A stretch of 64,000 bases of DNA from Haliotis cracherodii. Lineage: Eukaryota. The position numbers and the translations under genes were made by a program. The notes under the pieces are model-generated. The model saw only the letters and a list, made by a program, of their open reading frames with translations. It was not told where the DNA came from and did not search any database. The stretch spans positions 32,054,001 through 32,118,000 of the forward strand of contig NW_027266297.1 in NCBI RefSeq assembly GCF_022045235.1, in the 5' to 3' direction. Positions 3,116-35,553 of the stretch are shown here, one piece after another (position 1 is the stretch's first letter; each line of letters begins with the position of its first letter).

Positions 3116-3862
3116 GTTCGTACTGCGCCATGCTTCGTACTGCTTCATACCTCGCACTGCTTCGTGCTTCATACTTGCTCGTGCTTCGTACTGCTTCGCA
3201 CATTTTGCTTCGTACTGCTTCTTGCTTCATACTGCATCAAGCTTCGTACTGCGTCATGCTTCGTTCTGATTCATGCTCCGTTCTGCTTCTTGCTTGGTAC
3301 TGCTCTATACTTCGTGCTGCGTGATGCTTCGTACGGTTTCGCGCTTCGTACTGCTTCATGCTTCGTACATCCTCGTATTTCGTTCTGCTTCGTGCTTCGT
3401 GTTGCTCCATGCTTCGTACTACTTCGTGCTTCTTGCTTTGTACTGATTCTTGCTTTGTACTGCTTCATGTTTCGTACTGCTTCTTGCTTCGTACTGCTTC
3501 ATGCTTCGTAATTCTATGCGCTTCGTGTTGCTTCATACGTCCTACTTCCTCGTGCTTCTCGCTGTTTTGTGCCTCATACTGCTTCATGCTTCTTGCTTCG
3601 TACTCCTTCATGCTCGTCCTGCTTCGTGCTTTGTACTGCTTCATGCTTCTTGCTTCGTATTGCATCGAGCTTCGTACTGCCTCTTTGTTGGTTAAGCTCC
3701 ATGCTTCCTGCTTATGCTTTATCTTTCGTACTGCTTCGAGCTTCGTACTGTTTCATGCTTTGTACTGCTCCATGCTTCGTACTGCTTAATGATTCATACT
3801 GCTTCATGCTTCGTATTGTTTCGCGCTGCTGCGTTCTTCGTAATACTTCGTACTTCGTAGCT
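3116..3862. repeat. Degenerate satellite of GCTTCGTACT/GCTTCAT subunits (~17-bp unit)
   Basis: Direct tandem iteration. It explains the Cys/Leu/Phe-rich spurious ORFs. Confidence 0.9.
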
Positions 3863-5199: not shown

Positions 5200-6640
5200 G
5201 TTGCATTAAATTGCTTGTACTATATAAGATTACATTATATGACATACGAACATCCATTAAATGCATGTTATTAACCTTAATGTTTTGCAGCTGATTATGG
5301 TACTTTTTATAAGGTATTAACATTTTTATGGTTCTTTTACCGCGCATCTTCTCAAGGTGGAGTAAAGTCCAATGTACTTCTGTTCGTTTACATAACTGTT
5401 TTATTCAATTCTCATCACTATAATAGTTTAGATTTATATGACCTGCGAATAATGATAAATGCACCCACCGCGCTAATAATTTTGTCATCATGATTGTTTT
5501 CGTTTTCTTGTTATATTACAACGGGTCAGCCCAATGTGGGACTTCGTGGACTCTTACCATTTGGTCGATCATGAAACACACAAGCATGGGGTCGGTACTG
5601 AGAGACCAAGGGTCATAATCGGGACGAATCTTAAATCCATATAAACGAGCAACAGATCCTGACGTACTGGTACGCGGTGTGAACATTAAACATTTGAGAA
5701 TCAAAGACTTCCTTAACATCTTGCGACCGAACATCACTGCACCTTTATTGTTGTCATTGCTTTTTGTCAACGAAATATCGTATTGATATTGTGGTTGTGT
5801 TAATATTCGTTGTGGTGTCTTTACTCAAATTGTGTATTCATGGGGAAACTGAGAGGATGTATGTCCATAGTACAACACAATTACGTGATATGTGTGTTTC
5901 TTTCAACTAGCAATGCAGAATGTATGTTCGATGCATTAATGTTATTAATGTAACATTGATTATTTGTTTGTCTATCCACATATGCTGAAAACAATCTTTA
6001 GCTAATGTCTTTACTCAGACGAGGGTGCGTATGGCTGTGATATGAATGAGTGTTGCCTCAGACCCAAGTCAGGGTGCCTTTAATGATATTGAATCGAAAA
6101 AAGATAACCAATGGTCTTAGTTGTGTGAAACGTGTCATGTCATTGGGGTACGACGACACACTCCTGTAAGAATACATTGTCAATGAAAATAAACAACACG
6201 CAAGCCTTAATAGTGTGTTTTATTCCTTTCTATTCTAATATTGCACATGTTACAAAGTGGGACAAAATCAATGAATGAGTTTCATTGACACCATAATATA
6301 AACAATTAAATATGCACGTTTCACAAACCAGACCAATAACGATAATCAGTCTCAATCATTCGGTAGAACACACTTTTCAGTCACGCACTGTAATGACACA
6401 TCATGCCCTCTCATTCGCACTGGGGATCTGGCAAGTGGCATAATATGACATTTGATCTCGATGTTTTCGATTTGATCTCTAGTCAAATACTCATGATCAC
6501 TTATATCACGGTAGTTTACAGTAAGTCCTTTGAAATATGACATCTTAAGAAAAACGTCCTTATCTCACTATATATTAGGATATGTCAGAAACATTCTATA
6601 CTTTGTCTGATGAAATTGTGCTGCCTTGTTTGAACACATA
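5200..6640 (-). pseudogene. Remnant of a sixth array copy: last ~14 codons, stop, 3' UTR and downstream flank only
   Basis: 6596-6639 encodes ..VFKQGSTISSDKV* as in the intact copies. 6140-6595 is a diverged 3' UTR with AATAAA at ~6218-6223. The sequence joins directly to upstream spacer (atgttggtatctttgaca). Confidence 0.8.
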
Positions 6641-7977
6641 ATGTTGGTATCTTTGACACTGTTTGTCAATGTATTTCAGGAATAGAAACAGTTGTTTTCA
6701 TAATCAATATAGGACGCGAAGTATCTTTTTTTCACGAGACTGCAACTGGTAATACTTTTCAAAAAGCTCTTTTCCCTTACATGTAAAAAATATTTACTTT
6801 TATTTCAACTCCCGAGAATACGTTTTAAAAATATATCAATAAATTGTTATTCAAGATAACAACATTGACCAGTTTTCATGACATATATTTATAATACTCT
6901 TGCGACCAGATTTGATGTGAAGTATCTGCCGTACTACCGTGGCCAGTTTCCTTGATATATACAGCTGGAAAAGAATTTAAGCATTACATGTTTCATGTTT
7001 TCATATATCCTGAACTACCGTTTATCGTTGGGAGATATTTACACATGACATTGATTTCATTTTGATGAAAGTTGAAGAAAACGCCGATGTCTGCTATGAA
7101 GTCAGTTCAAGAGAATGCCATATCGTAAAATGCAAAGAAGTTGAAGCAAATGAAAGGGTTGTCACATAATTATTTCCACAGAACAGTTACAAAACATGTT
7201 ACTAGATTATCGATTTCCGTTTCTGTGTTTCAGTTTGGGCTTGTCGATATGTAAAAAATAAAGGGGTTTCGTAAGAACATTAATACCGGATGCGATTTTG
7301 AAACATGCAGTGTTTTCCATGATATATGTCGGAAACAAAATAAACGTTGCTCCGTTTCATAACATTAATCTAAGCATGAACACTTTCTGGTCTTTTAAAA
7401 GTTATAAAAACGTATGATTTATAACATGTTGATATACATCTTCCGACATGGAAAGGTGGTGATTGTACATTCAGGAAATGCGTTCACGACTTGAGGAACA
7501 TATCTCTCCAACACGTTGTTTACCTTCGTTTCTCCTCACACGTGAGTCTAGGACTCGGTTTCATTGAGTAGCGCAGTGTAGTGAAGCGAGTTTAGAAAGA
7601 ATGTGTGACGTATTTACATCGCGGATTGTTATGCTCAGTCAGCAGTTCTCCTGTCCATGCAACAACATTACACACCGATGTAATTTTCAAACTCAATACA
7701 TTAGATGCAGAGAACAGGAATAGCAAATCAATGCAAATTTTGACTAAATAATGCATGCAAAATGTGCAGTAAATACATTGTACACAATTGAGATGAAACA
7801 TAAATACATTATATATTCGTTTGACTATGTAAGTTAAAAGTATGTGAATTACGAACATACATAAGATGTATTTTGGTCCTTTTTATTATGTCATCGCGTT
7901 ATTTATTCACCTAATGCGTGTATTCATGTATTTACATTTGTAATATTATAAAACTGCGCATCATCTCAAGGTGGGAG

Positions 7978-8052
7978 TGAGTGAGTGAGTGAGTGAGTGA
8001 GTGAGTTGGGTTTAACGCCGCTTTTAACATTATTCCAGTCATATCACGGCGT
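7978..8052 (-). mobile_element. 5'-truncated family 1 SINE tail (also at 13878-13952 and 19780-19838)
   Basis: (GAGT)n + tail sequence, flanked by the TSD TCAAGGTGGGAG. Empty sites at 25585 and 31926. Confidence 0.85.
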
Positions 8053-9202
8053 TCAAGGTGGGAGGACAGCCCAATGCATTTCAGATATGCCAGGTTACAA
8101 TATAGGAGTTTAAACTCATATGACGTGTGAATATGAATAAATGCACGTGAGTGCTCATAGCTGGATCATATTATATATATGAATTTCTGTTTGTTTCTGG
8201 TTACTTTACATTCCAGCACGTCAGCTTAATGTGGAAGTTCGTTGACGGTTAATATTTGGTGAAACACACGAGCATGGTTATGGCACTGACAGATTCTAAT
8301 TTACGACCAGACGATCCTGACACGGACCTTAAATAAAAACGAATAAAACACAACCTCTTTCAATATTCGTAAGAAAACTGCTGAATAGTACTTGATCATT
8401 GATTTCACGGATCAATATCCTGTAGTCGAACATCACTGCACCTTTGAGCTAGAAATGCAGTAACTTATTGACAGGCGCTCAAAAGTCCCAAAAATGTTGT
8501 CAGCGAAATATCATGCTGGAAATCGTAACAACAAGAACGGCTGTTCGTTTTGTTCCTTAAAATGTCTTTACTCAAAGAGATATGGAAGTCGGTTCTGGAT
8601 ATGGGGGGTTGTGATATGACTGAATGTTGCTATATGTCCATGTCAGGGCGCATTCAATGAAACTGAATCGAGAAAAGGGAAAGTTGAGGTCTTCAGTGTG
8701 AAACAAACGCAACGTTTCGGGGGCAGGAGGACGCACTCTTGTAAGTAGACATTTTCAAAGAAAGTAAAGTACATGCAAGTCTTATTTGTTTGTTTTATTC
8801 ATTCCTATTCTGATATTGCACATGTTAAAATGAAGTATAGATTGACGGTCAATGATTGATAGGAATTTATATACATCGTAATATAAACAATCAAATATAT
8901 ACAACGTTTCACATAACAGGAAAATAACATTCATCTGTCCATCATTCGGTAGAACACACACATTCTCAGTCACGCACTTTAATGACACATCATGCCCTCT
9001 CATTCACATAAAATATCTGGCAAGTTGTATGATATGAGATTCGATCTCGATGTTTTTCATAGTTATATACTTATGAATTTGGCCTCTTATGTGCCAGTGT
9101 TTTCCAGAATGTCCTTTGATATATGGCATGTTAAACAAACCGTCCATATCTCCGTATCTGTTAGCATATATAACAGAATGTGCGTCAGTGTTCAGAAACA
9201 TT

Positions 9203-11093
9203 CTATACTTTGTCTGATGAAATTGTGCTACCTTGTTTGAAAACATGTCGAGCAGTAGATCGTGATCTCCTCAGACGCCTCCAAGCGTAGTCATAGGACT
9301 TTAGCATGGAGGCTGTTTTGACGTGGTATAATGCTCTTCTGTACACCACCCTCCGCATATAGACACTGCAGTCCTGAGACACAACGTTGTTCACCTGAGC
9401 TCTGACAAGTTTGTTTCCAAGAAGCCGTGTTTCCCATTTAACATTATCGGGAATATAGTGGCAGAACTTACTGAATACCACACACCTTCGTCCGTACCGG
9501 ATGGACTGAACACCGATCTCATAGAGAGCTGGCTTATTGTTCTCAGACTTGAAGATTGTCTTCTTTCTGAAACCGGGGTTGGCACCCCGCCTTTTCTCCC
9601 ACTGCGCATCCTGTTTGAGTGGAACGTCAGGAGAGATAACTTTGACCCACGGTGACCAGTCCATGTTTCTTAAGCTGAAGTTGTTCTCAAAAACTTCCTC
9701 TCTTCTCAGAAGAGGTGTCACAAATTTTGTAGGTTTCTGAAATAATACATTATATATAGTGAGTCCATTTAGAAATGGACATATCTTTAAAGTTCCTCAA
9801 GGGTACAACTTTAATCGATAAATGCCATCGTTATCAGCAGTATAAGAAAGAAATGAACAACTGTATATGTCATTATCACTTGGGAAGAAACATGTCTGAA
9901 ATATACCTTCAGTGATTTAGTTCCTGGTCTTCTGGTGGATTTAGGTTTGGCCTTTCGAACTGCTGTGATTGATATAGTTTTCTTTAAGGTGGGGATCTTC
10001 ACATCTTTCTTACTGCAACCGGTTGTGGTCTTCTTTGGCGATGACAGAGAGGCTACTCCATCACGTAGTGAGGTAAACATTCCTTCCATGTCTTTGCTGA
10101 GGGCACCTTCACCACAACGAGTTCGAACTTCTTTCTCATACACCTGAAATGACATATACAAATGTCAAAACAGGAATACACGGAAAACATATTCGGTAAG
10201 GAAAGTAAACTAAATATATTATGACAAATATATATGTTTATGAACCAAATTATCGAAGAGCAAGCTTACATCAAACATATCTGCCCCGTGCTCCCTGTAG
10301 CAGATGGCCATGAGGAAGTCGAAGACATTGGAAAAGCTGTCGAGTTGAAGATGGCGTCCCCCTGTCTCCTGGGACATTCTCTTGTAGAATTCCATGCTGC
10401 CACATCCACGCTCTACCCCATATATCTTCACTCCCTGGAAACGAATGGGATGTTTCAATGTATTTACTGTACATTTGACTTATGTTAGCATGATGCAATT
10501 CTGAGTGAACTCGATTTGTATCATCCCCAACTGACAATCAAACTCAAAATGCAATTCGATATTGTATTGAGAATTTGAATCTCTTGAAAAATAGCATTTC
10601 TTAGTGATGTTAAGAATTTAATTTGGCTAAAGTAAAATTAGCTCACCATTTTATTGAGAGTTTGAATCTCCTCCCTCCAGTCTATCTTGAGTTTGTTGTC
10701 GGGGTAGTCTGGTTCATGGGGGTTGGCATCCCCGATCATGACGAGAGCACGATTGGATCCGGGAGTCCATGACAACTCCTCACCAACTTGTCTGAGAACA
10801 AGTTCGTAACATTCGTCCGAGTCTCCGCCTCCAGTGCTGCTGACGTTGTTTACAAAGTCACATAGTTCCTTAACGTCTGTGGAAAAGTCGATCCACTTTG
10901 TTACGTAGTTGTGTTTGTCACAATAGTCCCCGTGTGCGAAGACGGCAATTCTGATGGCGGGGATGTCAGCCTGGAGCCGCTGTATCATGTCCTGGAGTCG
11001 ACCTCTGACTTCGACGAGACAGCTGCTCATGGAGCCGGTTGTGTCAAAGGAGAAGACAATCTCCGGAAGTCCACCAGGAGGAAGCAAAGCCAT
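9203..11093 (-). CDS. VWA domain + Lys-rich linker + ET/HRT-like GIY-YIG-fold domain protein, copy 1 (subtype A), 460 aa
   Basis: Spliced CDS join(11093..10647,10434..10270,10143..9907,9736..9203), all GT-AG with phase-0 coding introns (149+55+79+177 aa). VWA motifs IVFSFDTTGSM, AHGDYCD, TGGGD, LVMIGD, ETGG. C-terminal motifs WSPW, PALYEIGV, ETRLL, YDYAW. Non-coding exon 1 at ~11653..11542. AATAAA at 8799..8794. Confidence 0.9.
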
Positions 11094-11650
11094 GTTGAAT
11101 CTGTTGAAATATTCAGAACAATTGAGTGTACATGTATACAAGAAGTTTTACTTTTGAAATTGATACAGCTTTATAACCATTAACTCTGGCAGTGTAAATA
11201 TAAAAATGTCTTGAAAATCCATCTTTTGGTTCATTTTAATTTTAATGTTTATATTCTCAAGTAAATTTAATAATTTCAATTTTTAATAAAGTCAATTCAG
11301 AAACAAGAATGTTGGTTTCTTTAAAATATTTGCAAAGGTTATTTCCGTAAGTATGCTATAATTTATTAGCATTTTATAGATATAGAAAAATGTGTTCAGG
11401 TTATAAATACATATGATTTAATAATTTACGCTTTTCTTATAAAATAGATATAGATGTGTAATTTATTTGGCGACGATTTCCTCGCTGTTATCAGACCCAG
11501 TACTATATACATCATCACTGTTAATATGTTCCTCAAATTACCTTTTTTGAAGGTGACAGTAGTAATATAGTTCTTTTGCTATATTTCCACGCCGCTGTCA
11601 GACGTAGTTTATATATATTCAAGTCTTTCAACTGTAGTGTATGTCACTGG

Positions 11651-11750
11651 ACTGATCTTACTCAGCAGCCCGCTCGCTTTTATACTGGCTGAGAGGCGAT
11701 CAATGGGAGCTCGCTGAGACTTGTCTTGGTTGGCATGTTTAGACCTGTTC
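11651..11750 (-). promoter_or_regulatory. Core promoter of copy 1: TATAAAA + Inr (TCAGT) + p53-family half-site cluster
   Basis: TATAAAA at 11684..11678, TCAGT at 11655..11651 (31 nt spacing), RRRCWWGYYY-like decamers at 11717, 11731 and 11741. Confidence 0.75.
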
Positions 11751-14700
11751 CGTGGTTGTGTTTAGACGAGCAGGCGATGTTCATGTTTATGCGTTTCAGT
11801 ACATGCTTCTGTTTTGAAAGAAACAAAATCAACTGATTAATCAGTTGAAGATAAATGTAATCGGGGAATTATTAAGTACCTTGGACTTTGTGAAACGTGC
11901 TGTCTTTGAATGTCTCATATTCTGAATCGACACGTGAAACATACGTCCAGAAACAGATGAACATACTCTCTCAAACACATTATTTATATCAATGCTCCTT
12001 ACACTGTCTGTCGGAAGATATTTTGGTCAGAGACGGTACATTACCGCAATGTACAGAGTTTGTATATTATAGATGACGTCACTGCTTCGCGGAATGCTTT
12101 ACTCACACAACAAAATATCGATAATTTCCTCAGCAATAACACATAGGAATCTTGTAGATGTTTCTGTGGAATATATTGTCGTTAATTGATAGTGTGTATG
12201 TACTGTACTGGAAAAAATCATCCCTTCCAGTTGATTATCCTTTGATTGTGTAAACCATCATGAGGTGTGAATATACATTGTTTTGTTCCATTTGGAGAAT
12301 ACTTTGTCGTGTCGAACTTTCCCTGAGAAGCGTTGCTTTGTTGTAATTTCGAGAAAATATGTCGGTCCTAAATGAAAAACACTATTTGATATGTATCACA
12401 ACAATGAGCACTTTCTCTATGATAGTTTTGTACTCTAAGGCGTGATGAATTACTTTGTGCACGAATTCGCAGGCCATTTTTAACACATATAAAAAACCCA
12501 TGATGTTTGTATCTTTGACAGTGTGTGTCAATGTATTTCAGGAATAGAAACAGTGTTTTCATAATCAATATAGGACGTGAGAGTACCTCTTTGTAAAATG
12601 AAGAGACACATTTAATTGTCTTTCTGTTTCACGAGACTGCAGCTGATAATACTTTTCAAAAAGTTCTTTTTCTTACATGTAAAAAATATTTACTTTTATT
12701 TCAACTCCCGAGAATACGTTTTAAAAATATATCAATAAATTGTTATTCAAGATAACAACATTGACCAGTTTTCATGACATATATTTATAATACTCTTGCG
12801 ACCAGATTTGATGTGAAGTATCAGCCGTACTACAGTGGCCAGTTTCCTTGATATATACAGCTGGAAAAGAATTTAAGCATTACATGTTTCATGTTTTCAT
12901 ATATCCTGAACTGCCGTTTATCGTTGGGAGATATTTACACATGACATTGATTTCATTTTGATGAAAGTTGAAGAAAACGCCGATGTCTGCTATGAAGTCA
13001 GTTCAAGAGAATGCCATATCGTAAAATGCAAAGAAGTTGATGAAGCAAATGAAAGGGTTGTCACATAAATATTTCCACAGAACAGTTACAAAACATGTTA
13101 CTAGATTATCGATTTCCGTTTCTGTATTTCAGTTTGGGCTTGTCGATTTGTAAAAAAATAAAGGGGTTTCGTAAGAACATTAATACCGGATGCGATTTTG
13201 AAACAAGCAGTGTTTTCCATGATATATGTCGGAAACAAAATAAACGTTGCTCAGTTTCATAACATTAATCTAAACATGAACACTTTCTAGTCTTTTAAAA
13301 GTTATAAAAACGTATGATTTATAACATGTTGATATACATCTTCCGACATGGAAAGGTGGTGATTGTACATTCAGGAAATGCGTTCATGACTTGAGGAACA
13401 TATCTCTCCAACACGTTGTTTACCTTCGTTTCTCCTCACACGTGAGTCTAGGACTCGGTTTCATTGAGTAGCGCAGTGTAGTGAAGCGAGTTTAGAAAGA
13501 ATGTGTGACGTATTTACTTCGCGGATTGTTATGCTCAGTCAGCAGTTCTCCTGTCCATGCAACAACATTACACACCGATGTAATTTTCAAACTCAATACA
13601 TTAGATGCAGAGAACAGGAATAGCAAATCAATGCAAATTTTGACTAAATAATGCATGCAAAATGTGCAGTAAATACATTGTACACAATTGAGATGAAACA
13701 TAAATACATTCTATATTCGTTTGACTATGTAAGTTAAAAGTATGTGAATTACGAACATACATAAGATGTATTTTGGTCCTTTTTATTATGTCATCGCGTT
13801 ATTTATTCACCTAATGCGTGTATTCATGTATTTACATTTGTAATATTATAAAACTGCGCATCATCTCAAGGTGGGAGTGAGTGAGTGAGTGAGTGAGTGA
13901 GTGAGTTGGGTTTAACGCCGTTTTTAACATTATTCCAGTCATATCACGGCGTTCACGGTGGGAGGACAGCCCAATGCATTTCAGATATGCCAGGTTACAA
14001 TATAGGAGTTTAAACTCATATGACGTGTGAATATGAATAAATGCACGTGAGTGCTCATAGCTGGATCATATTATATATATGAATTTCTGTTTGTTTCTGG
14101 TTACTTTACATTCCAGCACGTCAGCTTAATGTGGAAGTTCGTTGACGGTTAGTATTTGGTGAAACACACGGGCATGGTTATGGCACTGACAGATTCTAAT
14201 TTACGACCAGACGATCCTGACACGGACCTTAAATAAAAACGAATAAAACACAACCTCTTTCAATATTCGTAAGAAAACTGCTGAATAGTACTTGATCATT
14301 GATTTCACGGATCAATATCCTGTAGTCGAACATCACTGCACCTTTGAGCTAGAAATGCAGTAACTTATTGACAGGCGCTCAAAAGTCCCAAAAATGTTGT
14401 CAGCGAAATATCATGCTGGAAATCGTAACAACAAGAACGGCTGTTCGTTTTGTTCCTTAAAATGTCTTTACTCAAAGAGATATGGAAGTCGGTTCTGGAT
14501 ATGGGGGGTTGTGATATGACTGAATGTTGCTATATGTCCATGTCAGGGCGCATTCAATGAAACTGAATCGAGAAAAGGGAAAGTTGAGGTCTTCAGTGTG
14601 AAACATACGCCACGTTTCGGGGGTAGGAGGACGCACTCTTGTAAGTAGACATTTTCAAAGAAAATAAAGTATATGCAAGTCTTATTTGTTTGTTTTATTC

Positions 14701-15102
14701 ATTCCTATTCTGATATTGCACATGTTAAAATGAAGTATAGATTGACGGTCAATGATTGATAGGAATTTATATACATCGTAATATAAACAATCAAATATAT
14801 ACAACGTTTCACATAACAGGAAAATAACGTTCATCTGTCCATCATTCGGTAGAACACACACATTCTCAGTCACGCACTTTAATAACACATCATGCCCTCT
14901 CATTCACATAAAATATCTGGCAAGTTGTATGATATGAGATTCGTTCTCGAAGTTTTTCATAGTTATATACTTATGAATTTGGCCTCTTATGTGCCAGTGT
15001 TTTCCAGAATGACCTTTGATATATGGCATGTTAAACAAACCGTCCATATCTCCGTATCTGTTAGCATATATCACAGAATGTGCGTCAGTGTTCAGAAACA
15101 TT

Positions 15103-16993
15103 CTATACTTTGTCTGATGAAATTGTGCTACCTTGTTTGAACACATGTCGAGCAGTAGATCGTGATCTCCTCAGACGCCTCCAAGCGTAGTCATAGGACT
15201 TTAGCATGGAGGCTGTTTTGACGTGGTATAATGCTCTTCTGTACACCACCCTCCGCATATAGACACTGCAGTCCTGAGACACAACGTTGTTCACCTGAGC
15301 TCTGACAAGTTTGTTTCCAAGAAGCCGTGTTTCCCAATTAACATTATCGGGAATATAGTGGCAGAACTTGCTGAATACCACACACCTTCGTCCGTACCGG
15401 ATGGACTGAACACCGATCTCATAGAGAGCTGGCTTATTGTTCTCAGACTTGAAGATTATCTTCTTTCTGAAACCGGGGTTGGCACCCCGCCTTTTCTCCC
15501 ACTGCGCATCCTGTTTGAGTGGAACGTCAGGAGAGATAACTTTGACCCACGGTGACCAGTCCATGTTTCTTAAGCTGAAGTTGTTCTCAAAGACTTCCTC
15601 TCTTCTCAGAAGAGGTGTCACAAATTTTGTAGGTTTCTGAAATAATACATTATATATAGTGAGTCCATTTAGAAATGGACATATCTTTAAAGTTCCTCAA
15701 GGGTACAACTTTAATCGATAAATGCCATCGTTATCAGCAGTATAAGAAAGAAATGAACAACTGTATATGTCATTATCACTTGGGAAGAAACATGTCTGAA
15801 ATATACCTTCAGTGATTTAGTTCCTGGTCTTCTGGTGGATTTAGGTTTGGCCTTTCGAACTGCTGTGATTGATATAGTTTTCTTTAAGGTGGGGATCTTC
15901 ACATCTTTCTTACTGCAACCGGTTGTGGTCTTCTTTGGCGATGACAGAGAGGCTACTCCATCACGTAGTGAGGTAAACATTCCTTCCATGTCTTTGCTGA
16001 GGGCACCTTCACCACAACGAGTTCGAACTTCTTTCTCATACACCTGAAATGACATATACAAATGTCAAAACAGGAATACACGGAAAACATATTCGGTAAG
16101 GAAAGTAAACTAAATATATTATGACAAATATATATGTTTATGAACCAAATTATCGAAGAGCAAGCTTACATCAAACATATCTGCCCCGTGCTCCCTGTAG
16201 CAGATGGCCATGAGGAAGTCGAAGACATTGGAAAAGCTGTCGAGTTGAAGATGGCGTCCCCCTGTCTCCTGGGACATTCTCTTGTAGAATTCCATGCTGC
16301 CACATCCACGCTCTACCCCATATATCTTCACTCCCTGGAAACGAATGGGATGTTTCAATGTATTTACTGTACATTTGACTTATGTTAGCATGATGCAATT
16401 CTGAGTGAACTCGATTTGTATCATCCCCAACTGACAATCAAACTCAAAATGCAATTCGATATTGTATTGAGAATTTGAATCTCTTGAAAAATAGCATTTC
16501 TTAGTGATGTTAAGAATTTAATTTGGCTAAAGTAAAATTAGCTCACCATTTTATTGAGAGTTTGAATCTCCTCCCTCCAGTCTATCTTGAGTTTGTTGTC
16601 GGGGTAGTCTGGTTCATGGGGGTTGGCATCCCCGATCATGACGAGGGCACGATTGGATCCGGGAGTCCATGACAACTCCTCACCAACTTGTCTGAGCACA
16701 AGTTCGTAACATTCGTCCGAGTCTCCGCCTCCAGTGCTGCTGACGTTGTTTACAAAGTCACATAGTTCCTTAACGTCTGTGGAGAAGTCGATCCACTTTG
16801 TTACGTAGTTGTGTTTGTCACAATAGTCCCCGTGTGCGAAGACGGCAATTCTGATGGCGGGGATGTCAGCCTGGAGCCGCTGTATCATGTCCTGGAGTCG
16901 ACCTCTGACTTCGACGAGACAGCTGCTCATGGAGCCGGTTGTGTCAAAGGAGAAGACAATCTCCGGAAGTCCACCAGGAGGAAGCAAAGCCAT
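15103..16993 (-). CDS. VWA + ET-like domain protein, copy 2 (subtype A), 460 aa
   Basis: Exact +5900 offset from copy 1: join(16993..16547,16334..16170,16043..15807,15636..15103). Splice sites and frame are intact, and the protein is near-identical to copy 1. Confidence 0.9.
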
Positions 16994-17550
16994 GTTGAAT
17001 CTGTGGAAATATTCAGAACAATTGAGTGTACATGTATACAAGAAGTTTTACTTTTGAAATTGATACAGTTTTATAACCATTAACTCTGGCAGTGTAAATA
17101 TAAAAATGTCTTGAAAATCCATCTTTTGGTTCATTTTAATTTTAATGTTTATATTCTCAAGTAAATTTAATAATTTCAATTTTTAATAAAGTCAATTCAG
17201 AAACAAGGATGTTGGTTTCTTTAAAATATTTGCAAAGGTTATTTCCGTAAGTATGCTATAATTTATTAGCATTTTATAGATATAGAAAAATGTGTTCAGG
17301 TTATAAATACATATGATTTAATAATTTACGCTTTTCTTATAAAATAGATATAGATGTGTAATTTATTTGGCGACGATTTCCTCGCTGTTATCAGACCCAG
17401 TACTATATACATCATCACTGTTAATATGTTCCTCAAATTACCTTTTTTGAAGGTGACAGTAGTAATATAGTTCTTTTGCTATATTTCCACGCCGCTGTCA
17501 GACGTAGTTTATATATATTCAAGTCTTTCAACTGTAGTGTATGTCACTGG

Positions 17551-17650
17551 ACTGATCTTACTCAGCAGCCCGCTCGCTTTTATACTGGCTGAGAGGCGAT
17601 CAATGGGAGCTCGCTGAGACTTGTCTTGGTTGGCATGTTTAGACCTGTTC
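17551..17650 (-). promoter_or_regulatory. Core promoter of copy 2
   Basis: Identical to copy 1: TATA 17584..17578, Inr 17555..17551. Confidence 0.75.
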
Positions 17651-20600
17651 CGTGGTTGTGTTTAGACGAGCAGGCGATGTTCATGTCTATGCGTTTCAAT
17701 ACATGCTTCTGTTTGGAAAGAAACAAAATCAACTGATTAATCAGTTGAAGATAAATATAATCGGGGAATTATTAAGTACCTTTGACTTTGTGAAACGTGC
17801 TGTCTTTGAATGTCTCATATTCTGAATCGACACGTGAAACATACGTCCAGAAACAGATGAACATACTCTCTCAAACACATTATTTATATCAATGCTCCTT
17901 ACACTGTCTGTCGGAAGATATTTTGGTCGGAGACGGTACATTGCCGCAATGTACAGAGTTTGTATATTATAGATGACGTCACTGCTTCGCGGAATGCTTT
18001 ACTCACACAACAAAATATCGATAATTTCCTCAGCAATAACACATAGGAATCTTGTAGATGTTTCTGTGGAATATATTGTCGTTAATTGATAGTGTGTATG
18101 TACTGTACTGGAAAAAATCATCCCTTCCAGTTGATTATCCTTTGATTGTGTAAACCATCATGAGGTGTGAATATACATTGTTTTGTTCCATTTGGAGAAT
18201 ACTTTGTCGTGTCGAACTTTCCCTGAGAAGCGTTGCTTTGTTGTAATTTCGAGAAAATATGTCGGTCCTAAATGAAAAACACTATTTGATATGTATCACA
18301 ACAATGAGCACTTTCTCTATGATAGTTTTGTACTCTAAGGCGTGATGAATTACTTTGTGCACGAATTCGCAGGCCATTTTTAACACATATAAAAAACCCA
18401 TGATGTTTGTATCTTTGACAGTGTGTGTCAATGTATTTCAGGAATAGAAACAGTTGTTTTCATAATCAATATAGGACGTGAGAGTACCTCTTTGTAAAAT
18501 GAAGAGACACATTTAATTGTCTTTCTATTTCACGAGACTGCAGCTGATAATACTTTTCAAAAAGCTCTTTTTCCTTACATGTAAAATATATTTACTTTTA
18601 TTTCAACTCCCGAGAATACGTTTTAAAAATATATCAATAAATTGTTATTCAAGATAACAACATTGACCAGTTTTCATGACACATATTTATAATACTCTTG
18701 CGACCAGATTTGATGTGAAGTATCTGCCGTACTACCGTGGCCAGTTTCCTTGATATATACAGCTGGAAAAGAATTTAAGCATTACATGTTTCATGTTTTC
18801 ATATATCCTGAACTACCGTTTATCGTTGGGAGATATTTACACATGACATTGATTTCATTTTGATGAAAGTTGAAGAAAACGCCGATGTCTGCTATGAAGT
18901 CAGTTCAAGAGAATGCCATATCGTAAAATGCAAAGAAGTTGATGAAGCAAATGAAAGGGTTGTCACATAAATATTTCCACAGAACAGTTACAAAACATGT
19001 TACTAGATTATCGATTTCCGTTTCTGTATTTCAGTTTGGGCTTGTCGATTTGTAAAAAAATAAAGGGGTTTCGTAAGAACATTAATACCGGATGCGATTT
19101 TGAAACAAGCAGTGTTTTCCATGATATATGTCGGAAACAAAATAAACGTTGCTCAGTTTCATAACATTAATCTAAACATGAACACTTTCTAGTCTTTTAA
19201 AAGTTATAAAAACGTATGATTTATAACATGTTGATATACATCTTCCGACATGGAAAGGTGGTGATTGTACATTCAGGAAATGCGTTCATGACTTGAGGAA
19301 CATATCTCTCCAACACGTTGTTTACCTTCGTTTCTCCTCACACGTGAGTCTAGGACTCGGTTTCATTGAGTAGCGCAGTGTAGTGAAGCGAGTTTAGAAA
19401 GAATGTGTGACGTATTTACTTCGCGGATTGTTATGCCCAGTCAGCAGTTCTCCTGTCCATGCAACAACATTACACACCGATGTAATTTTCAAACTCAATA
19501 CATTAGATGCAGAGAACAGGAACAGCAAATCACTGCAAATTTTGACTAAATAATGCATGCAAAATGTGCAGTAAATACATTGTACACAATTGAGATGAAA
19601 CATAAATACATTCTATATTCGTTTGACTATGTAAGTTAAAAGTATGTGTATTACGAACATACATAAGATGTATTTTGATCCTATTCATTATGTCATCGCG
19701 TTATTTTTTCACCTAATGCGTGTATTCATGTATTTACATATGTAAGATTATAAAACTGCGCATCATCTCAAGGTGGGAGTGAGTGAAAGAGTTGGGTTTA
19801 ACGCCGCTTCAAACATTATTCCAGTCATATCATGGCGTTCAAGGTGGGAGGACAGCCCAATGCATTTCAGATATGCCAGGTTACAATATAGGAGTTTAAA
19901 CTCATATGACGTGTGAATATGAATAAATTCACGTGAGTGCTCATAGCTGGATCATATTATATATATGAATTTCTGTTTGTTTCTGGTTACTTTACATTCC
20001 AGCACGTCAGCTTAATGTGGAAGTTCGTTGACGGTTAGTATTTGGTGAAACACACGAGCATGGTTACGGCACTGACAGATTCTAATTTACGACCAGACGA
20101 TCCTGACACGGACCTTAAATAAAAACGAAAAAACACAACCTCTTTCAATATTCGTAAGAAAACTGCTGAATAGTTCTTGATCATTGATTTCACGGATTAA
20201 TATCCTGTAGTCGAACATCACTGCACCTTTGAGCTAGAAATGCAGTAACTTATTGACAGAGGCTCCCAAGTCCCAAAAATGTTGTCAGCGAAATATCATG
20301 CTGGAAATCGTAACAACAAGAACGGCTGTTCGTTTTGTTCCTTAAAATGTCTTTACTCAAAGAGATATGGAAGTCGGTTCTGGATATGGGGGGTTGTGCT
20401 ATGACTGAATGTTGCTGTATGTCTATGTCAGGGCGCATGAAATGTAACTGAATCGAGACAAGGGAAAGTTGAGGTCTTCAGTGTGAAACAAACGCCACGT
20501 TTCGGGGGCAGGAGGACGCACTCTTGTAAGTAGACATTTTCAAAGAAAATAAAGTATATGCAAGTCTTATTTGTTTGTTTTATTCATTCCTATTCTGATA

Positions 20601-20987
20601 TTGCACATGTTAAAATGAAGTATATATTGTAGGTCAATGAATGATAGGAATTTATATACATCGTAATATGAACAATCAAATATATACAACGTTTCACATA
20701 ACAGGAAAATAACGTTCATCTGTCCATCGTTCGGTAGAACACACACATTCTCAGTCACGCACTTTAATGACACATCATGCCGTCTCATTCACATAAAATA
20801 TCTGGCAAGATGTATGATATGAGATTCGATCTCGATGTTTTCCAAAGTTATATACTTATGAATTTGGCCTCTTATGTGCCAGTGTTTTCCAGAATGTCCT
20901 TTGATATATGGCATGTTAAGAAAACCGTCCATATCTCCGTATCTGTTAGCATATATAACAGAATGTGCGTCAATGTTCAGAAACATT

Positions 20988-22883
20988 CTATACTTTGTCT
21001 GATGAAATTGTGCTACCTTGTTTGAACACATGTCGAGCAGTAGATCGTGATCTCCTCAGGCGCCCCCATGCGTAGTCATAGGACTTTATCATGGAGGCTG
21101 TTTTGGCATGGTATGATGCTCTTCTGTACACCACCCTCCGCATATAGACACTGCAGTCCTGAGACACAACGTTGTTCACCTGAGCTCTGACAAGTTTGTT
21201 TCCAAGAAGCCGTGTTTCCCAATTAACATTATCGGGAATATGGTGGCAGAACTTGCTGAATACCACACACCTTCGTCCGTACCGGATGGACTGAACACCA
21301 GTCTCATAGAGAGCTGGCTTATTGTTCTCAGACTTGAAGATTGTCTTCTTTCTGAATCCGGGGTTGGCACCCCGTCTTTTCTCCCATTGTGCATCCTGTT
21401 TGAGAGGAACGTCAGGAGAGATAACTTTGACCCACGGTGACCAGTCCATGTTTTTCAAGCTGAAGTTGTTCTCAAAGACTTCCTCTCTTCTCAGGAGTGG
21501 TGTCACAAACTTTGTTGATTTCTGGAATAATATAGTGTATTGTGAGACTCCTTGACATGGTCATAGCCTAACACAATGAAAACAAGAATTAAACACTCGC
21601 ATTATGATCGCGCATTATAAAAAAAATGAGAGAATATTTTACCTTGAACGATTTCTTTCTTGGCTTTCTGATGGATTTAGGTTTTGGCTTTCGGACTCTT
21701 TGGATGGATGTTATTTTCTTTAAGGTGGGAACCTTCACATCTTTCTTAGCGGCACTGATCGTAATCGCTGTCTTTGGTTGAGGAGGGGAGACAATTCCAT
21801 CACGTAGGGATGTAAACATTCCTTCCATGTCTTTGCTGAGGGCACCATCAGCGCAACGGGCTCGAACCTCTTTCTCGTACACCTGATGAGGGCAAATGAT
21901 CATTGATGAAAGGAATTTTATAACAACGAATATCACACAATTCAAATGACAGCCGCACTACGGATTTTAAAGTGATGCAGTTATTTCAACTTACATGAAG
22001 AATCTCTGCCCCCTGTTCCCTGTAGCAGATGGCCATAAGGAAGTCAAAGATGTTTGTAAAGTTTTCCAATTTAAGATGCCGACCTCCTGTCTTGTTGGAA
22101 ATGGTTTCGTAGAACGTCGTATTGTCCGTGTCGCACTGAACTCCATAGATTTTTACTCCCTGAAATTAAAATTAATTAATAGAAAAAGTGAATGAACATC
22201 CTTGTGTCGAAGTTACGGTTGTTGTGGCGAAGCAAAAGCAAGGTCCCTGCGCATTCCTTCTTTATTCATCATTTTCGGTTGTGTCGAACCTCGGATAACT
22301 TTACTCGGATACATTTACGTGAGTCTCTTCAACGTCGACTTAAAGGTGGTTGACTGGTGACTGTCGTGTTTTTATTATTTGATTTATGTCTGAAAATGAC
22401 CACAACTTGGAAATTAATAGAAATCCAACATACCATTTCATTCAGAGTTTGTGTCTCCTTTCTCCAGTCTATTTTTAGTTTATTGGCTTTGAAGTTTGGT
22501 TCGTGGGGCTTGTCGTCCCCGACGACGACGAGAACACGGTTAGATCCTGGTGTCCATGACAACTCCTCCCTAACTTGTCGGAGAACAAGTTCGTAACACT
22601 CGCCGTGGTCGTAATCGCCTCCTGTATCTTTAACGTTCATGACGAAGTCGCAGAGCCCTTTCACGTCAGTGGAGAAGTCGATCCACTTTGTGATATATGT
22701 GGATTTGGTACAGTAGTCACCGTGTGCGAAGACGGCGATTCTGACGGCGGGGATGTCAGCCTGGAGCCGCTGTATCATGTCCTGGAGTCGTCCTCTGACT
22801 TCGGCCAGACACTTGCTCATGGAGCCGGTTGTGTCAAAGGAGAAGACAATCTCCGGAAGTCCACCAGGAGGAAGCAAAGCCAT
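20988..22883 (-). CDS. VWA + ET-like domain protein, copy 3 (A/B mosaic), 462 aa
   Basis: join(22883..22434,22159..21995,21882..21643,21521..20988), GT-AG, 150+55+80+177 aa. Exon 3 (GVKIYGVQCDTDNTTFYETISNKTGGRHL...) was translated by hand because it is missing from the ORF track. Confidence 0.9.
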
Positions 22884-26500: not shown

Positions 26501-26752
26501 TAGAAAACACACATTCTCAGTCACGCACTTTAATGACACATCATGCCGTCTCATTCACATAACTATCTGGCAAGTTGTATAATATGAGATTCGATCTCGA
26601 TCTTTTCCAAAGTTATAAACTGATTAATTTGGCCTCTTATGTGCCAGTGTTTTCCAGAATGTCCTTTGATATATGGCATGTTAAGAAAACCGTCCATATC
26701 TCCGTATCTGTTAGCATATATTACAGAATGTGTGTCAATGTTCAGAAACATT

Positions 26753-28642
26753 CTATACTTTGTCTGATGAAATTGTGCTACCTTGTTTGAACACATGTCG
26801 AGCAGTAGATCGTGATCTCCTCAAACGCCTCCAAGCGTAGTCATACGACTTTATCATGGAAGCTGTTTTGACGTGGTTTGATGCTCTTCTATACACCACC
26901 CTCCGCACATAGACACTGCAGTCCTGAGACACAACGTTGTTTACCTGAGCTCTGACAATTTTGTTTCCAAGAAGCCGCGTTTCCCAATTAACATTATCGG
27001 GAATATGGTGGCAGAACTTGCTGAATACCACACACCTTCGTCCGTACCGGATGGACTGAACACCAGTCTCATAGAGAGCTGGCTTATTGTTCTCAGACTT
27101 GAAGATTGTCTTCTTTCTGAATCCAGGGTTGGCACCCCGTCTTTTCTCCCATTGTGCATCCTGTTTGAGTGGAACGTCAGGGGAGATAACTTTGACCCAC
27201 GGTGACCAGTCCATGTTTCTCAAGCTGAAGTTGTTCTCAAAGACTTCCTCTCTTCTCAGGAGTGGTGTCACAAACTTTGTTGATTTCTGGAATAATATAG
27301 TGTATTGTGAGACTCCTTGACATGGTCATAGCCTAACACAATGAAAACAAGAATTAAACACTGTGATCGCGCATTTAAAAAAAATTGAGAGAATATTTTA
27401 CCTTGAACGATTTCTTTCTTGGCTTTCTGATGGATTTAGGTTTTGGCTTTCTGACTCTTTGAATGGATGTTATTTTCTTTAAGGTGGGAACCTTCACATC
27501 TTTCTTAGCGGCACTGATCGTAATCGCTGTCTTTGGTTGAGGAGGGGAGACAATTCCATCACGTAGGGATGTAAACATTCCTTCCATGTCTTTGCTGAGG
27601 GCACCATCAGCGCAACGGGCTCGAACCTCTTTCTCGTACACCTGATGAGGGCAAATGATCATTGATGAAAGGAATTTTATAACAACGAATATCACACAAT
27701 TCAAATGACAGCCGCTCTACGGATTTTAAAGTGGTGCAGTTATTTCAACTTACATGAAGAATCTCTGCCCCCTGTTCCCTGTAGCAGATGGCCATAAGGA
27801 AGTCAAAGATGTTTGTAAAGTTTTCCAATTTAAGATGCCGACCTCCTGTCTTGTTGGAAATGGTTTCGTAGAACGTCGTATTGTCCGTGTCGCACTGAAC
27901 TCCATAGATTTTTACTCCCTGAAATTAAAATTAATTAATAGAATAAGTGAATGAACATCCTTGTGTCGAAGTTACGGTTATTGTGGCGAAGTAAAAGCAA
28001 GGTCCTTGCGCATTCCTTCTTCATTCATCATTTTCGGTTGTGTCGAACCTCGGATAACTTTACTCGGATACATTTAAGTGAGTCCCTTCAACGTCGATTC
28101 AAAGGTGTTTGACTGGTGACTGTCGTGTTCTTATTATTTGATTTATGTCTGAAAATGACCACAACCTGGAAATTAATAGAAATTCAACATACCATTTCAT
28201 TCAGAGTTTGTGTCTCCTTTCTCCAGTCTATTTTTAGTTTATTGGCTTTGAAGTTTGGTTCGTGGGGCTTGTCGTCCCCGACGACGACGAGAACACGGTT
28301 AGATCCTGGTGTCCATGACAACTCCTCCCTAACTTGTCGGAGAACAAGTTCGTAACACTCGCCGTGGTCGTAATCGCCTCCTGTATCTTCAACGTTCATG
28401 ACGAAGTCGCAGAGCCCTTTGACGTCAGTGGAGAAGTCGATCCATTTTGTGACGTATGTGGATTTGGTACAGTAGTCACCGTGTGCGAAGACGGCGATTC
28501 TGACGGCGGGGATGTCAGCCTGGAGCCGCTGTATCATGTCCTGGAGTCGACCCCTGACTTCGGCGAGACAGTCGCACATGGAGCCAGTAGTGTCAAAGGA
28601 GAAAACAATCTCCGGAAGTCCACCAGGAGGAAGCAAAGCCAT
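26753..28642 (-). CDS. VWA + ET-like domain protein, copy 4 (subtype B), 462 aa
   Basis: join(28642..28193,27918..27754,27641..27402,27286..26753), GT-AG, open frame. Confidence 0.9.
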
Positions 28643-29117
28643 GTTGAATCTGTGGAAAATGAAAACACAACTACATGAATACATACATACATGAAAGTAT
28701 ATTTGTAATATCGATTCAGTTTCATTACTAACCCTTGCAGCGGAAATGCTGAAGTAATTTAATTAATTGTCTTGTTCATTTTAATGTTATTTTAATGTTA
28801 CATTGAAAGTTTTCCTGTCAAGGTTTATTGAGAAATCACAATCTTGTTGTCTTTTCTAATTCAAGGTAATTTGCATTAGCATACTATAACTATTTGTATT
28901 ATATGCAGAAAACATGTGTTTACGTTACGTTACGTAAATTTATCAAATAATTGATCTTTTTCTTTAAAAATAGTTATTGTGGAATGTGTTCCACAAGTTA
29001 CCTTTTTTGAATGATGACAGTAGATATTTAGTTGTTGTTTTTTATTCTCCGGTGCTATTAAATGCCGTTTCAGATATACCAACGCCTTCCAACTGCTAGC
29101 GAGTGACTTGTGTGTAG

Positions 29118-29218
29118 ACTGATCTTACTCAGCGAGCCGATCAGCTTTTATAGTGGCTGAGGGGCGATCAATGGTATCTCGCCGAGACTTGTCGTGGTTG
29201 GCATGTTTAGACTTGCTC
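29118..29218 (-). promoter_or_regulatory. Core promoter of copy 4
   Basis: TATA 29152..29146, Inr 29122..29118, exon-1 donor AAG|GTAACT at 29002. Motifs are conserved despite divergent surrounding sequence. Confidence 0.75.
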
Positions 29219-31211: not shown

Positions 31212-31685
31212 CAATCTCATTAAAATCAGATCTTAGTTCTCGCTACCGCTAAACAAAGATCTGAGGACATCCCATTACGGGTCACGTCAGACCGACCTTG
31301 CACGAACTTTGAGCGACCAATGGAATGACCAACCAGAAGGCAGCTTTCTCCAGCTTTACGGCACTAATTTCAAATTGGCGACTATGCTTCGAAACATATT
31401 TTGACAAATTCTCCATCACAAATTCGAAACCTGAACAAAAGAATATTCTGGAATGGGTAATAGATGGTGTAGATTGTATGGATTCGGTCGTTAAACCCGT
31501 AACTATCGTTCGGAATACCCCGTGTTAAAATTTTCGAGGTTGCATGATTCCGACGGTCACTTTCATGATCTGGTAAGTGACGCTCTGATTGGTCGGATGA
31601 AAGGTCGTTCTGACTTGACCCTAATGGGATATCTTCAGATCTTTGTTTAGCGGTAGTGAACTAAGGTCTGATTTTAATGAGATTG
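31212..31685. mobile_element. MITE with ~90-bp imperfect TIRs and 9-bp TSD (Mutator-like)
   Basis: CAATCTCATTAAAATCAGA... and ...TCTGATTTTAATGAGATTG, with TSD CACTGACAT. Confidence 0.85.
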
Positions 31686-33093: not shown

Positions 33094-34977
33094 CTATACT
33101 TTGTCTGATGAAATTGTGCTACCTTGTTTGAACACATGTCGAGCAGTAGATCGTGATCTCCTCAAACGTCTCCAAGCGTAGTCATACGACTTTATCATGG
33201 AAGCTGTTTTGACGTGGTTTGATGCTCTTCTATACACCACCCTCCGCACATAGACACTGCAGTCCTGAGACACAACGTTGTTTACCTGAGCTCTGACAAT
33301 TTTGTTTCCAAGAAGCCGCGTTTCCCAATTAACATTATCGGGAATATGGTGGCAGAACTTGCTGAATACCACACACCTTCGTCCGTACCGGATGGACTGA
33401 ACACCAGTCTCATAGAGAGCTGGCTTATTGTTCTCAGACTTGAAGATTGTCTTCTTTCTGAATCCAGGGTTGGCACCCCGTCTTTTCTCCCATTGTGCAT
33501 CCTGTTTGAGTGGAACGTCAGGGGAGATAACTTTGACCCACGGTGACCAGTCCATGTTTCTCAAGCTGAAGTTGTTCTCAAAGACTTCCTCTCTTCTCAG
33601 GAGTGGTGTCACAAACTTTGTTGATTTCTGGAATAATATAGTGTATTGTGAGACTCCTTGACATGGTCATAGCCTAACACAATGAAAACAAGAATTAAAC
33701 ACTCTGATCGGGCATTAAAAAACAATTGAGAGAATATTTTACCTTGAACGATTTCTTTCTTGGCTTTCTGATGGATTTAGGTTTTGGCTTTCGGACTCTT
33801 TGGATGGATGTTATTTTCTTTAAGGTGGGAACCTTCACATCTTTCTTAGCGGCACTGATCTTTGGTTGAGGAGGGGAGACAATTCCATCACGTAGGGATG
33901 TAAACATTCCTTCCATGTCTTTGCTGAGGGCACCATCAGCGCAACGGGCTCGAACCTCTTTCTCGTACACCTGATGAGGGCAAATGATCATTGATGAAAG
34001 GAATTTTATAACAACGAATATCACACAATTCAAATGACAGCCGCTCTACGGATTTTAAAGTGGTGCAGTTATTTCAACTTACATGAAGAATCTCTGCCCC
34101 CTGTTCCCTGTAGCAGATGGCCATAAGGAAGTCAAAGATGTTTGTAAAGTTTTCCAATTTAAGATGCCGACCTCCTGTCCTGTTGGAAATGGTTTCGTAG
34201 AACGTCGTATTGTCCGTGTCGCACTGAACTCCATAGATTTTTACTCCCTGAAATTAAAATTAATTAATAGAATAAGTGAATGAACATCCTTGTGTCGAAG
34301 TTACGGTTGTTGTGGCGAAGTAAAAGCAAGATCCTTGCGCATTCCTTCTTCATTCATCATTTTCGGTTGTGTCGAACCCCGGATAACTTTACTCGGATAC
34401 ATTTAAGTGAGTCAATTCAACGTCGATTCAAAGCTTAAGGTGTTTGACTGGTGACTGTCGTGTTCTTATTATTTGATTTATGTCTGAAAATGACCACAAC
34501 CTGGTAATTAATAGAAATCCAACATACCATTTCATTCAGAGTTTGTGTCTCCTTTCTCCAGTCTATTTTTAGTTTATTGGCTTTGAAGTTTGGTTCGTGG
34601 GGCTTGTCGTCCCCGACGACGACGAGAACACGGTTAGATCCTGGTGTCCATGACAACTCCTCCCTAACTTGTCGGAGAACAAGTTCGTAACACTCGCCGT
34701 GGTCGTAATCGCCTCCTGTATCTTCAACGTTCATGACGAAGTCGCAGAGCCCTTTGACGTCAGTGGAGAAGTCGATCCATTTTGTGACGTATGTGGATTT
34801 GGTACAGTAGTCACCGTGTGCGAAGACGGCGATTCTGACGGCGGGGATGTCAGCCTGGAGCCGCTGTATCATGTCCTGGAGTCGACCCCTGACTTCGGCG
34901 AGACAGTCGCACATGGAGCCAGTAGTGTCAAAGGAGAAAACAATCTCCGGAAGTCCACCAGGAGGAAGCAAAGCCAT
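33094..34977 (-). CDS. VWA + ET-like domain protein, copy 5 (subtype B), 458 aa
   Basis: join(34977..34528,34247..34083,33970..33743,33627..33094). In-frame 12-nt deletion (TAIT) in the linker exon relative to copy 4. Confidence 0.9.
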
Positions 34978-35452
34978 GTTGAATCTGTGGAAAATGAAAA
35001 CACAACTACATGAATACATACATACATGAAAGTATATTTGTAATATCGATTCAGTTTCATTACTAAACCTTGCAGCGGAAATGCTGAAGTAATTTAATTA
35101 ATTGTCTTGTTCATTTTAATGTTATTTTAATGTTACATTGAAAGTTTTCCTGTCAAGGTTTATTGAGAAATCACAATCATGTTGTCTTTTCTAATTCAAG
35201 GTAATTTGCATTAGCATACTATAACTATTTGTATTATATGCAGAAAACATGTGTTTACGTTACGTTACGTAAATTTATCAAATAATTGATCTTTTTCTTT
35301 AAAAATAGTTATTGTGGAATGTGTTCCACAAGTTACCTTTTTTGAATGGTGACAGTAGATATTTAGTTGTTGTTTTTTATTCTCCGGTGCTATTAAATGC
35401 CGTTTCAGATATACCAACGCCTTCCAACTGCTAGCGAGTGACTTGTGTGTAG

Positions 35453-35553
35453 ACTGATCTTACTCAGCGAGCCGATCAGCTTTTATAGTGGCTGAGGGGC
35501 GATCAATGGTATCTCGCCGAGACTTGTCGTGGTTGGCATGTTTAGACTTGCTC
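35453..35553 (-). promoter_or_regulatory. Core promoter of copy 5
   Basis: TATA 35487..35481, Inr 35457..35453, exon-1 donor at 35337. Confidence 0.75.

Follow-up and report, generated by a model that had tools for sequence, protein, structure and literature searches.

The last exon of a five-copy tandem gene in the abalone Haliotis cracherodii encodes a domain that is predicted to adopt the GIY-YIG nuclease fold and is very probably dead as a nuclease. Its second tyrosine, glycine, arginine, metal-binding glutamate and conserved asparagine are all replaced, and these losses extend across the family to which it belongs; together with the fold matches, they bear out the term pseudo-nuclease used in a first-pass annotation of this DNA. 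In the reading that we prefer, with little more than even confidence, the domain binds nucleic acid without cutting it and forms part of an adaptor that recruits a partner through a von Willebrand factor A (vWA) domain. The analysis started from a window of 64,000 nucleotides (contig NW_027266297.1, positions 32,054,001 to 32,118,000), and all coordinates below refer to this whole stretch.

Gene organization and expression

The abalone gene has four exons and occurs as five tandem copies (Table 1) that encode proteins of 458-462 aa (460 aa for copy 1), in which a vWA domain is followed by a basic linker and the GIY-YIG-fold domain. All five copies have open frames and GT..AG introns, the 15 introns being intact, and no signal peptide was apparent on reading the 460-aa protein. 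As had been annotated, exon 4 is an open last exon of 177 codons, it is very basic (pI 10.5, net charge +13 per 100 aa), and 9 of its 177 residues distinguish copy 1 from copy 4. Exon 4 of copy 1 is a 100% match to a H. cracherodii protein, and its identity to 14 proteins from Haliotis ranges from 60 to 100%. In contigs from four public runs, the joint between exons 4 and 3 (acceptor joined to 9907) was present in all four, that between exons 3 and 2 in three, and that between exons 2 and 1 in all four, and the joints fit the predicted introns. The five-copy gene is spliced and apparently expressed, the evidence being the joints themselves and not the run labels, as the RNA nature of the four runs is a guess.

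Table 1. Features of the tandem array and of the exon 4 domain in the window
Feature	Position	Strand	Remark
Copy 1 exon 4 (P0001), 177-aa GIY-YIG pseudo-nuclease domain and stop	9203..9736	(-)
Copy 1 exon 3, end of vWA helical extension and Lys/Arg-rich linker	9907..10143	(-)
Copy 1 exon 2, C-terminal vWA part	10270..10434	(-)
Copy 1 exon 1, start codon and type A vWA with DTTGS MIDAS-like motif	10647..11093	(-)
5'-UTR intron	11101..11541	(-)	joint 11100-11542, single run (X1)
ALY (GIY box), Tyr72 kept, Gly replaced by Ala	9521..9529	(-)
FSK (YIG box), Tyr replaced by Phe88, Gly by Lys90	9467..9475	(-)
Residues 100-104, catalytic Arg position and Arg104	9425..9439	(-)	register test
Thr141 (metal Glu position, Asn minus 12) to Arg153 (Asn position), including YDYAW	9278..9316	(-)
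Copy 2, intact, type A vWA	15103..16993	(-)	exon 4 at 15103-15636
Copy 3, intact, type B vWA	20988..22883	(-)	exon 4 at 20988-21521
Copy 4, intact, type B vWA	26753..28642	(-)	exon 4 at 26753-27286
Copy 5, intact, type B vWA	33094..34977	(-)	exon 4 at 33094-33627
Remnant of a divergent further copy	6033..6639	(-)	last ~15 codons and 3' flank, 72% identity to copy 1

Several other features of the locus were recorded. The frame of the remnant is closed upstream of its ~15 surviving codons. Copies 1 and 2 are 98.2% identical over 8.9 kb (within 6724-21532) and copies 4 and 5 are 98.6% identical over 6.3 kb (within 25502-38164), as very recent duplications would be; alternatively, each pair may represent two haplotypes assembled in tandem. 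The window also holds four tandem-repeat arrays (43953-45223, 50966-51895, 56480-57117 and 3117-3814), the first two with units of ~47 bp and ~42 bp. A transcribed repeat beside a GAGT microsatellite, at 8000-8220 and at the equivalent positions, reaches a depth of >70,000 in all four runs and is likely a SINE-like element.

Fold of the exon 4 domain

An AF2 model of the exon 4 domain, built from 106 homologues, has a pLDDT of 96 and a pTM of 0.90. When it was compared with 48,161 chains, T4 EndoII ranked first (Z 7.1, rmsd 3.2, 113 aligned), followed at ranks 2-7 by PD-T4-3, Hpy188I, UvrC, I-TevI, the plant Grx (glutaredoxin) N-domain and Eco29kI (Z 3.3-4.3); PD-T4-3 and Hpy188I are, we take it, GIY-YIG proteins. 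These matches share 6-11% identity with the domain. Each Z is modest, and the best, 7.1, is middling alone, yet the ranking of GIY-YIG proteins in the model comparison is consistent. Foldseek returned nothing from the pdb set at E<=0.001, where T4 EndoII nonetheless took ranks 1-3, and a single match from the viral set (E 7e-5, TM 0.59). A single-sequence model of the full protein was unusable (pLDDT 35).

Profile comparisons give the stronger support. Exon 4 of copy 1 (P0001) scores 15.8 bits (E 0.012) against Pfam PF19239, below the gathering cut-off of 21.4 bits, a cut-off that is passed by its close paralogue P0015 (26.2 bits) and by several other homologues. A sister family with an intact active site, described below, was placed by the ESM Atlas through PF01541/PF19239 clusters, and its profile aligns to the dead family over the whole length (probability 99.4-99.6, E 6e-22 to 5e-24). 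The ESM Atlas gave only one weak match (0.75) for P0001 itself, and no meaningful match to a PDB sequence was obtained with P0147, A3 or A1 as query. The top seven chains, all GIY-YIG, and the sister-family profile match sustain the earlier assignment to the GIY-YIG fold over another fold, and the exon 4 domain is predicted to adopt it.

Active-site residues

The first-pass annotation had aligned the domain by eye and read GIY as ALY, YIG as FSK, the metal-binding glutamate as threonine, and DYAWN as DYAWR or DYAWG. Each of these readings stands: PALYE and VFSK are found in all five copies, Thr141 lies twelve residues before the Asn position in all five, and the last motif is DYAWR in copies 1, 2, 4 and 5 and DYAWG in copy 3. 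The placement of Thr141 at the metal Glu position was also made by reference to E118 of T4 EndoII (PMC2764454, in part). In copy 1, the replacements are Phe88 (for Tyr), Lys90 (Gly), Lys100 (Arg), Arg104 (Tyr/His), Thr141 (Glu) and Arg153 (Asn); of the canonical six, Tyr72 alone is kept and the other five are gone. The catalytic Arg position, residue 100, is Lys in copy 1 and Asn in copies 2-5.

The annotation took the arginine of ETRL as the only catalytic residue kept; this residue, Arg104, most likely falls on the His/Tyr position instead, and the first tyrosine, Tyr72, is retained. The 29 ungapped columns between the invariant Arg of the sister family and Arg128, which is invariant in both families, score +10.9 if the catalytic Arg is placed at residue 100 and -19.9 if it is placed at Arg104, and hhalign supports the former register. 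A 6-column local score prefers Arg104 over residue 100 (-0.8 vs -4.3), and an earlier hhalign alignment with six templates set the catalytic Arg on Trp101. Arg104 lies four residues, or one helix turn, past the catalytic position. In I-BmoI, H31 (Y43 in UvrC) packs on R27 (PMC2853131, in part). Most likely, to judge by these alignments, Arg104 occupies the His/Tyr position and the catalytic Arg itself has been lost, the site having been mapped from profiles and spacing.

An intact sister family and family-wide loss

A survey of 150 homologues for an intact Y/G/R/E/N set found the complete site (YxG, Glu and Asn) in two, P0147 and P0110, and not in the other 148. Used as queries, these two led to a sister family in which the site is kept, so that the intact relatives now comprise P0147, P0110, P0198, P0199, P0201 and L001-L045. 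Residues that are essential in I-BmoI, where mutating any one of Y17, R27, E74 and N87 abolishes cleavage (PMC2853131, in part), are invariant or nearly so in the sister family, and its Asn lies twelve residues past the Glu. All four of Gly, Arg, Glu and Asn are kept in 39 of 40 sister sequences, a set in which Asn is present by construction of the search pattern and many members are close kin.

The dead set numbers 139 sequences (the 150 homologues, less 10 fragments or spurious rows and the two intact ones, plus the query). Among the 127 of these that could be scored at all four sites, none of the four residues is kept in 85, one in 40, two in 2, and three or four in none. Taken by position, the first tyrosine of the GIY box (Tyr72) is kept in 122 of 139; the YIG box has its Tyr in 73 and its Gly in 5 of 139; Arg is found at position 100 in 12 of 139; and the metal Glu and the Asn persist in 5 and 25, respectively, of 127. 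The majority of the residues that are invariant in the dead family (Arg12, Glu13, Trp27, Trp30, Glu73, Arg128, YxAW and Arg163) recur in the active one and may be purely structural.

Of 30 clusters checked, 11 could be named, and these are ten molluscs (gastropods and bivalves of the genera Haliotis, Littorina, Batillaria, Babylonia, Mya, Pecten and Magallana) and one annelid, Owenia. The Owenia protein matches that of the abalone in its order of vWA, linker and dead domain. In a FastTree phylogeny rooted on a bacterial-like sequence, the dead group stands apart from the intact one, with weak support (0.86). Judged by the residues scored, the catalytic loss is old and family-wide, the named members being molluscs and the annelid. 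A recent, abalone-specific loss is ruled out by this family-wide pattern.

It is very improbable that the domain is still a nuclease with a rebuilt site, in which, for example, Glu102, Glu73 or Asp149 would serve the metal and Lys90 or Arg104 the phosphate. Such a site could draw on position 102, which is Asp or Glu in 95 of 138 members, is absent from the intact family and is the sole new semi-conserved acid, as well as on Tyr72, on Tyr88 (present in half) and on the nearness of Arg104 to the catalytic position; moreover, bacterial relatives carry Gln at the Glu site, and Slx1 does without the Asn motif (PMC1564403, in part), so the superfamily tolerates some change. However, there is no His column conserved at >=40% and no invariant new acid, Arg104 is present in only 28 of 136 family members, and copy 1 has lost nearly the whole canonical set when single losses suffice to abolish cleavage by I-BmoI (PMC2853131, in part).

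Searches for other relatives were limited in reach. A search of 8000 candidates for longer proteins (315-2000 aa) that retain an intact domain, for instance in a fusion of vWA with an active nuclease, found none, which is weak evidence. Viral contigs gave no relatives, nor did GTDB genomes searched with P0200 or phages searched with P0147, all of these being searches sensitive to close relatives. The bacterial-like PF19239 relatives (L046-L056 and P0200, ~115 aa) retain YVG, Arg, GSH and Asn; most of them carry Gln in place of the metal Glu (L047 has Glu), and they may work with a variant site. Within the sister family, L016, L017, L019, L020, L022 and L026 hold intact single-exon GIY-YIG genes of ~165 aa, with ~40% GC and in tandem pairs, on metagenomic contigs that are animal-like in look and on which several neighboring copies are broken. 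On two related contigs (L029:1-4525 and L031:3-4521, minus strand), frames of ~1060 and ~300 codons adjoin an intact GIY-YIG gene and may belong to a mobile element.

Selection and exchange among copies

The small number of differences between copies 1 and 4 had been taken as conservation, and this is partly right: exon 4 is under purifying selection, and it has also been homogenized between copies, as its dS reveals. Across the nine copy pairs with amino-acid changes, dN/dS of exon 4 is 0.10-0.19, and copies 1 and 4 differ by 9 nonsynonymous and 21 synonymous changes (P=8e-9); exon 4 is therefore functional. When type A (copies 1-2) is compared with type B (copies 3-5), dS is 0.13-0.22 in exon 4 and 0.63-0.68 in the vWA exons (P=1e-5). 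Identity between copies rises after intron 3 from 72-86% to 91-97% and remains at a high level over the following 1 kb. When H. cracherodii is compared with H. asinina, their type A vWA domains are sisters at 94% identity; the last exons cluster with paralogues of the same species, at 95-96% within species versus 86% between the two. The low dS of exon 4 and this grouping by species indicate that the tail has been homogenized by conversion or unequal crossing-over while the vWA types persist, and because the homogenized tract takes in non-coding DNA, the process need not be adaptive.

That the exon is a decaying relic, similar between copies only through recent duplication, is barely credible. 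Its dS is threefold below that of the vWA exons, which shows that some of the likeness does come from recent copying, but the dN/dS values, the five intact frames and 15 intact introns, the spliced contigs, and the invariant columns that hold in 139 divergent homologues together refute a pseudogene.

The vWA module

Exons 1-2 code for the vWA domain, which matches Pfam PF00092 above the cut-off (E 8e-7). Its MIDAS-like residues, D17, T19, S21, D91, E94 and D122, are present in 30 of 33 full-length members, and metal binding is predicted. Domains of the vWA/MIDAS type usually bind proteins. The fusion is found in 26 of the 29 homologues of >=420 aa; P0042, P0043, P0082, P0089, P0130, P0136 and P0151 are apparently without vWA, and many of the shorter homologues look like exon fragments. 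Judged by eye, the differences between vWA types cluster at and past the MIDAS-like loops. Between types A and B, vWA dN/dS is 0.23, by which positive selection on the whole domain was rejected.

Residues 8-231, including the helical extension, match the vWA of 39 phage records (<=45% identity, E 1e-57), among them crAss-like phages, Rctr197k_275 and Rhizobium phage RHph_I1_18 gp149, and a Mya protein of the family is labelled 'YR811-like'; the comparison was made with phage records only, and cellular genomes may hold a nearer source. Two phage vWA proteins of 360 aa carry an unrelated C-terminal domain, phrog_26613, in contrast to the GIY-YIG fold at the C-terminus of the abalone protein. The phage proteins near the abalone module are encoded at L057:1470-2549, L058:3980-5083, L059:3941-4729 and L060:3938-4705; in three of four annotated phages the vWA gene lies within ~1.5 kb of thymidylate synthase, and two have phrog_26613.

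The protein might be an intracellular immune or anti-mobile-element sensor, expanded in tandem, with a constant grip on foreign DNA or RNA and a variable vWA head, or else a decoy for nuclease inhibitors, a role that we consider improbable. The decoy, which the first-pass annotation had offered beside nucleic-acid binding, draws no specific support from the observations. Tandem arrays occur here and apparently, from consecutive LOC numbers, in other Haliotis and in Babylonia, distinct vWA types have outlasted speciation even as the tail was homogenized, and both the position of the vWA differences, around and after the MIDAS-like loops, and the likeness to phage vWA would suit such a sensor. 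On the other hand, the dN/dS between vWA types bears no domain-level sign of positive selection, and the homogenized tract takes in 1 kb or more of non-coding DNA, which is what plain unequal crossing-over would produce.

Proposed function

In the adaptor reading, an active PF19239-type nuclease would have fused with a vWA domain of phage or bacterial type before the split of molluscs and annelids, and the nuclease domain would have lost catalysis after that fusion. The cleft would then have been refilled with basic residues, such that the domain and linker could hold DNA (or RNA) uncut. The long basic linker would tether the GIY-YIG domain to an intracellular vWA, which is predicted to bind a partner protein via its metal site, and the adaptor, held on DNA or RNA, would bring that partner to nucleic acid, probably in the nucleus. 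Types A and B may differ in partner, with one anchor in common.

Binding of nucleic acid is proposed because of the basic character of the protein. The median charge per 100 aa is +10.9 in the 139 dead domains versus +5.4 in 40 intact ones, a cleft glycine has become Lys or Arg in 89 of 139, the dead family has ten conserved basic columns, the 55-residue linker has 17 K/R against 1 D/E, and several paralogues have a KRK-rich N-terminal stretch and long Lys-rich tails. From charge and ancestry, binding by the abalone domain is plausible. Long paralogues from Mya, Pecten and Haliotis (P0058, P0097, P0120 and P0139) have in common a KRKAS...K..KQ.TS stretch at the N-terminus, and a weak AT-hook lies within the Lys-rich linker (~450 aa) of P0120, features hinting at a chromatin role.

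Work on T4 EndoII cuts both ways by analogy: the E118A mutant is inactive and yet among the best binders, whereas G49A and R57A bind poorly (PMC2764454, in part), so the loss of Gly and Arg could also weaken binding. The poor binding of these Gly and Arg mutants would fit a domain that is dead as a nuclease and binds no nucleic acid, serving instead as a protein-binding or structural module whose charge is incidental. The new conserved columns are mainly hydrophobic (Phe20, Leu22, Trp46, Phe62, Trp101 and Ile172), which also favors such a module, and pseudo-enzymes often become scaffolds. We regard this as rather unlikely, given that the dead domain has twice the net charge of its active sister, that the replaced glycine lines the cleft, and that the linker is very basic.

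Relation to known systems

Like the dead family, the intact PF19239-type relatives have the RE...WSxW...R...G N-terminal extension, YE, Arg128 and YDYAW. They are small stand-alone frames with YxG, Arg, Tyr, GSH, Glu (Gln if bacterial-like) and Asn, all of which the dead family has lost, whereas the latter has an extra C-terminal RxxxKxGxxIS hairpin and the fusion with vWA. T4 EndoII, UvrC, I-TevI, Hpy188I and Eco29kI are catalytically active and lack a vWA partner, unlike the dead, vWA-fused domain of the abalone.

The DYAWN motif presumably ties the GIY-YIG domain of the dead family to that of the plant EFFECTOR OF TRANSCRIPTION (ET/HRT) proteins. In these, a GIY-YIG domain of prokaryotic type has been recruited into a multidomain eukaryotic regulator (PMC6585611, in part), and the abalone family is likewise a case of recruitment into a eukaryotic multidomain protein. 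ET2 reportedly has nicking activity, and Cys/His ET repeats accompany its GIY-YIG domain (PMC6585611, in part); the abalone family differs in having a vWA domain and in the loss of catalytic residues, and neither reading nor Pfam revealed Cys/His ET repeats in the 460-aa protein.

The available part of a survey of the superfamily mentions no such dead family (PMC1564403). Literature searches on GIY-YIG pseudonucleases, vWA fusions, molluscs or lophotrochozoa and PF19239, which covered few subscription papers and no supplements, found no description of it; among the matches listed, none described a natural catalytically inactive GIY-YIG family by title, and none retrieved by gene identifiers was relevant. 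A Mytilus paper names an unspecified GIY-YIG transcript with no evident tie to the dead family. The mollusc and annelid pseudo-enzyme family is real and apparently undescribed.

Significance

GIY-YIG domains are almost always taken to be nucleases, and an endonuclease label on these mollusc genes would be wrong. The dead family has kept the fold and dropped catalysis, and its intact sister offers a natural positive control for testing the role of the dead domain. In its most ambitious form, which we consider decidedly unlikely, the proposal would be of a lophotrochozoan family built from a phage-type vWA and a GIY-YIG nuclease, the latter having turned into a non-cutting sensor of nucleic acid >500 million years ago. 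Through exchange between tandem copies, one unvarying sensor tail would be placed on ancient vWA heads that persist across species, and the result would be a combinatorial receptor, inside the cell, for nucleic acid that is foreign or damaged. If that receptor reading is true, no natural GIY-YIG pseudo-nuclease that spans a whole family would, as far as the literature searched goes, have been described in animals before. In farmed shellfish, the family is a candidate for an adaptor in chromatin or immunity, and it shows two domains of prokaryotic or viral type fused in one animal gene.
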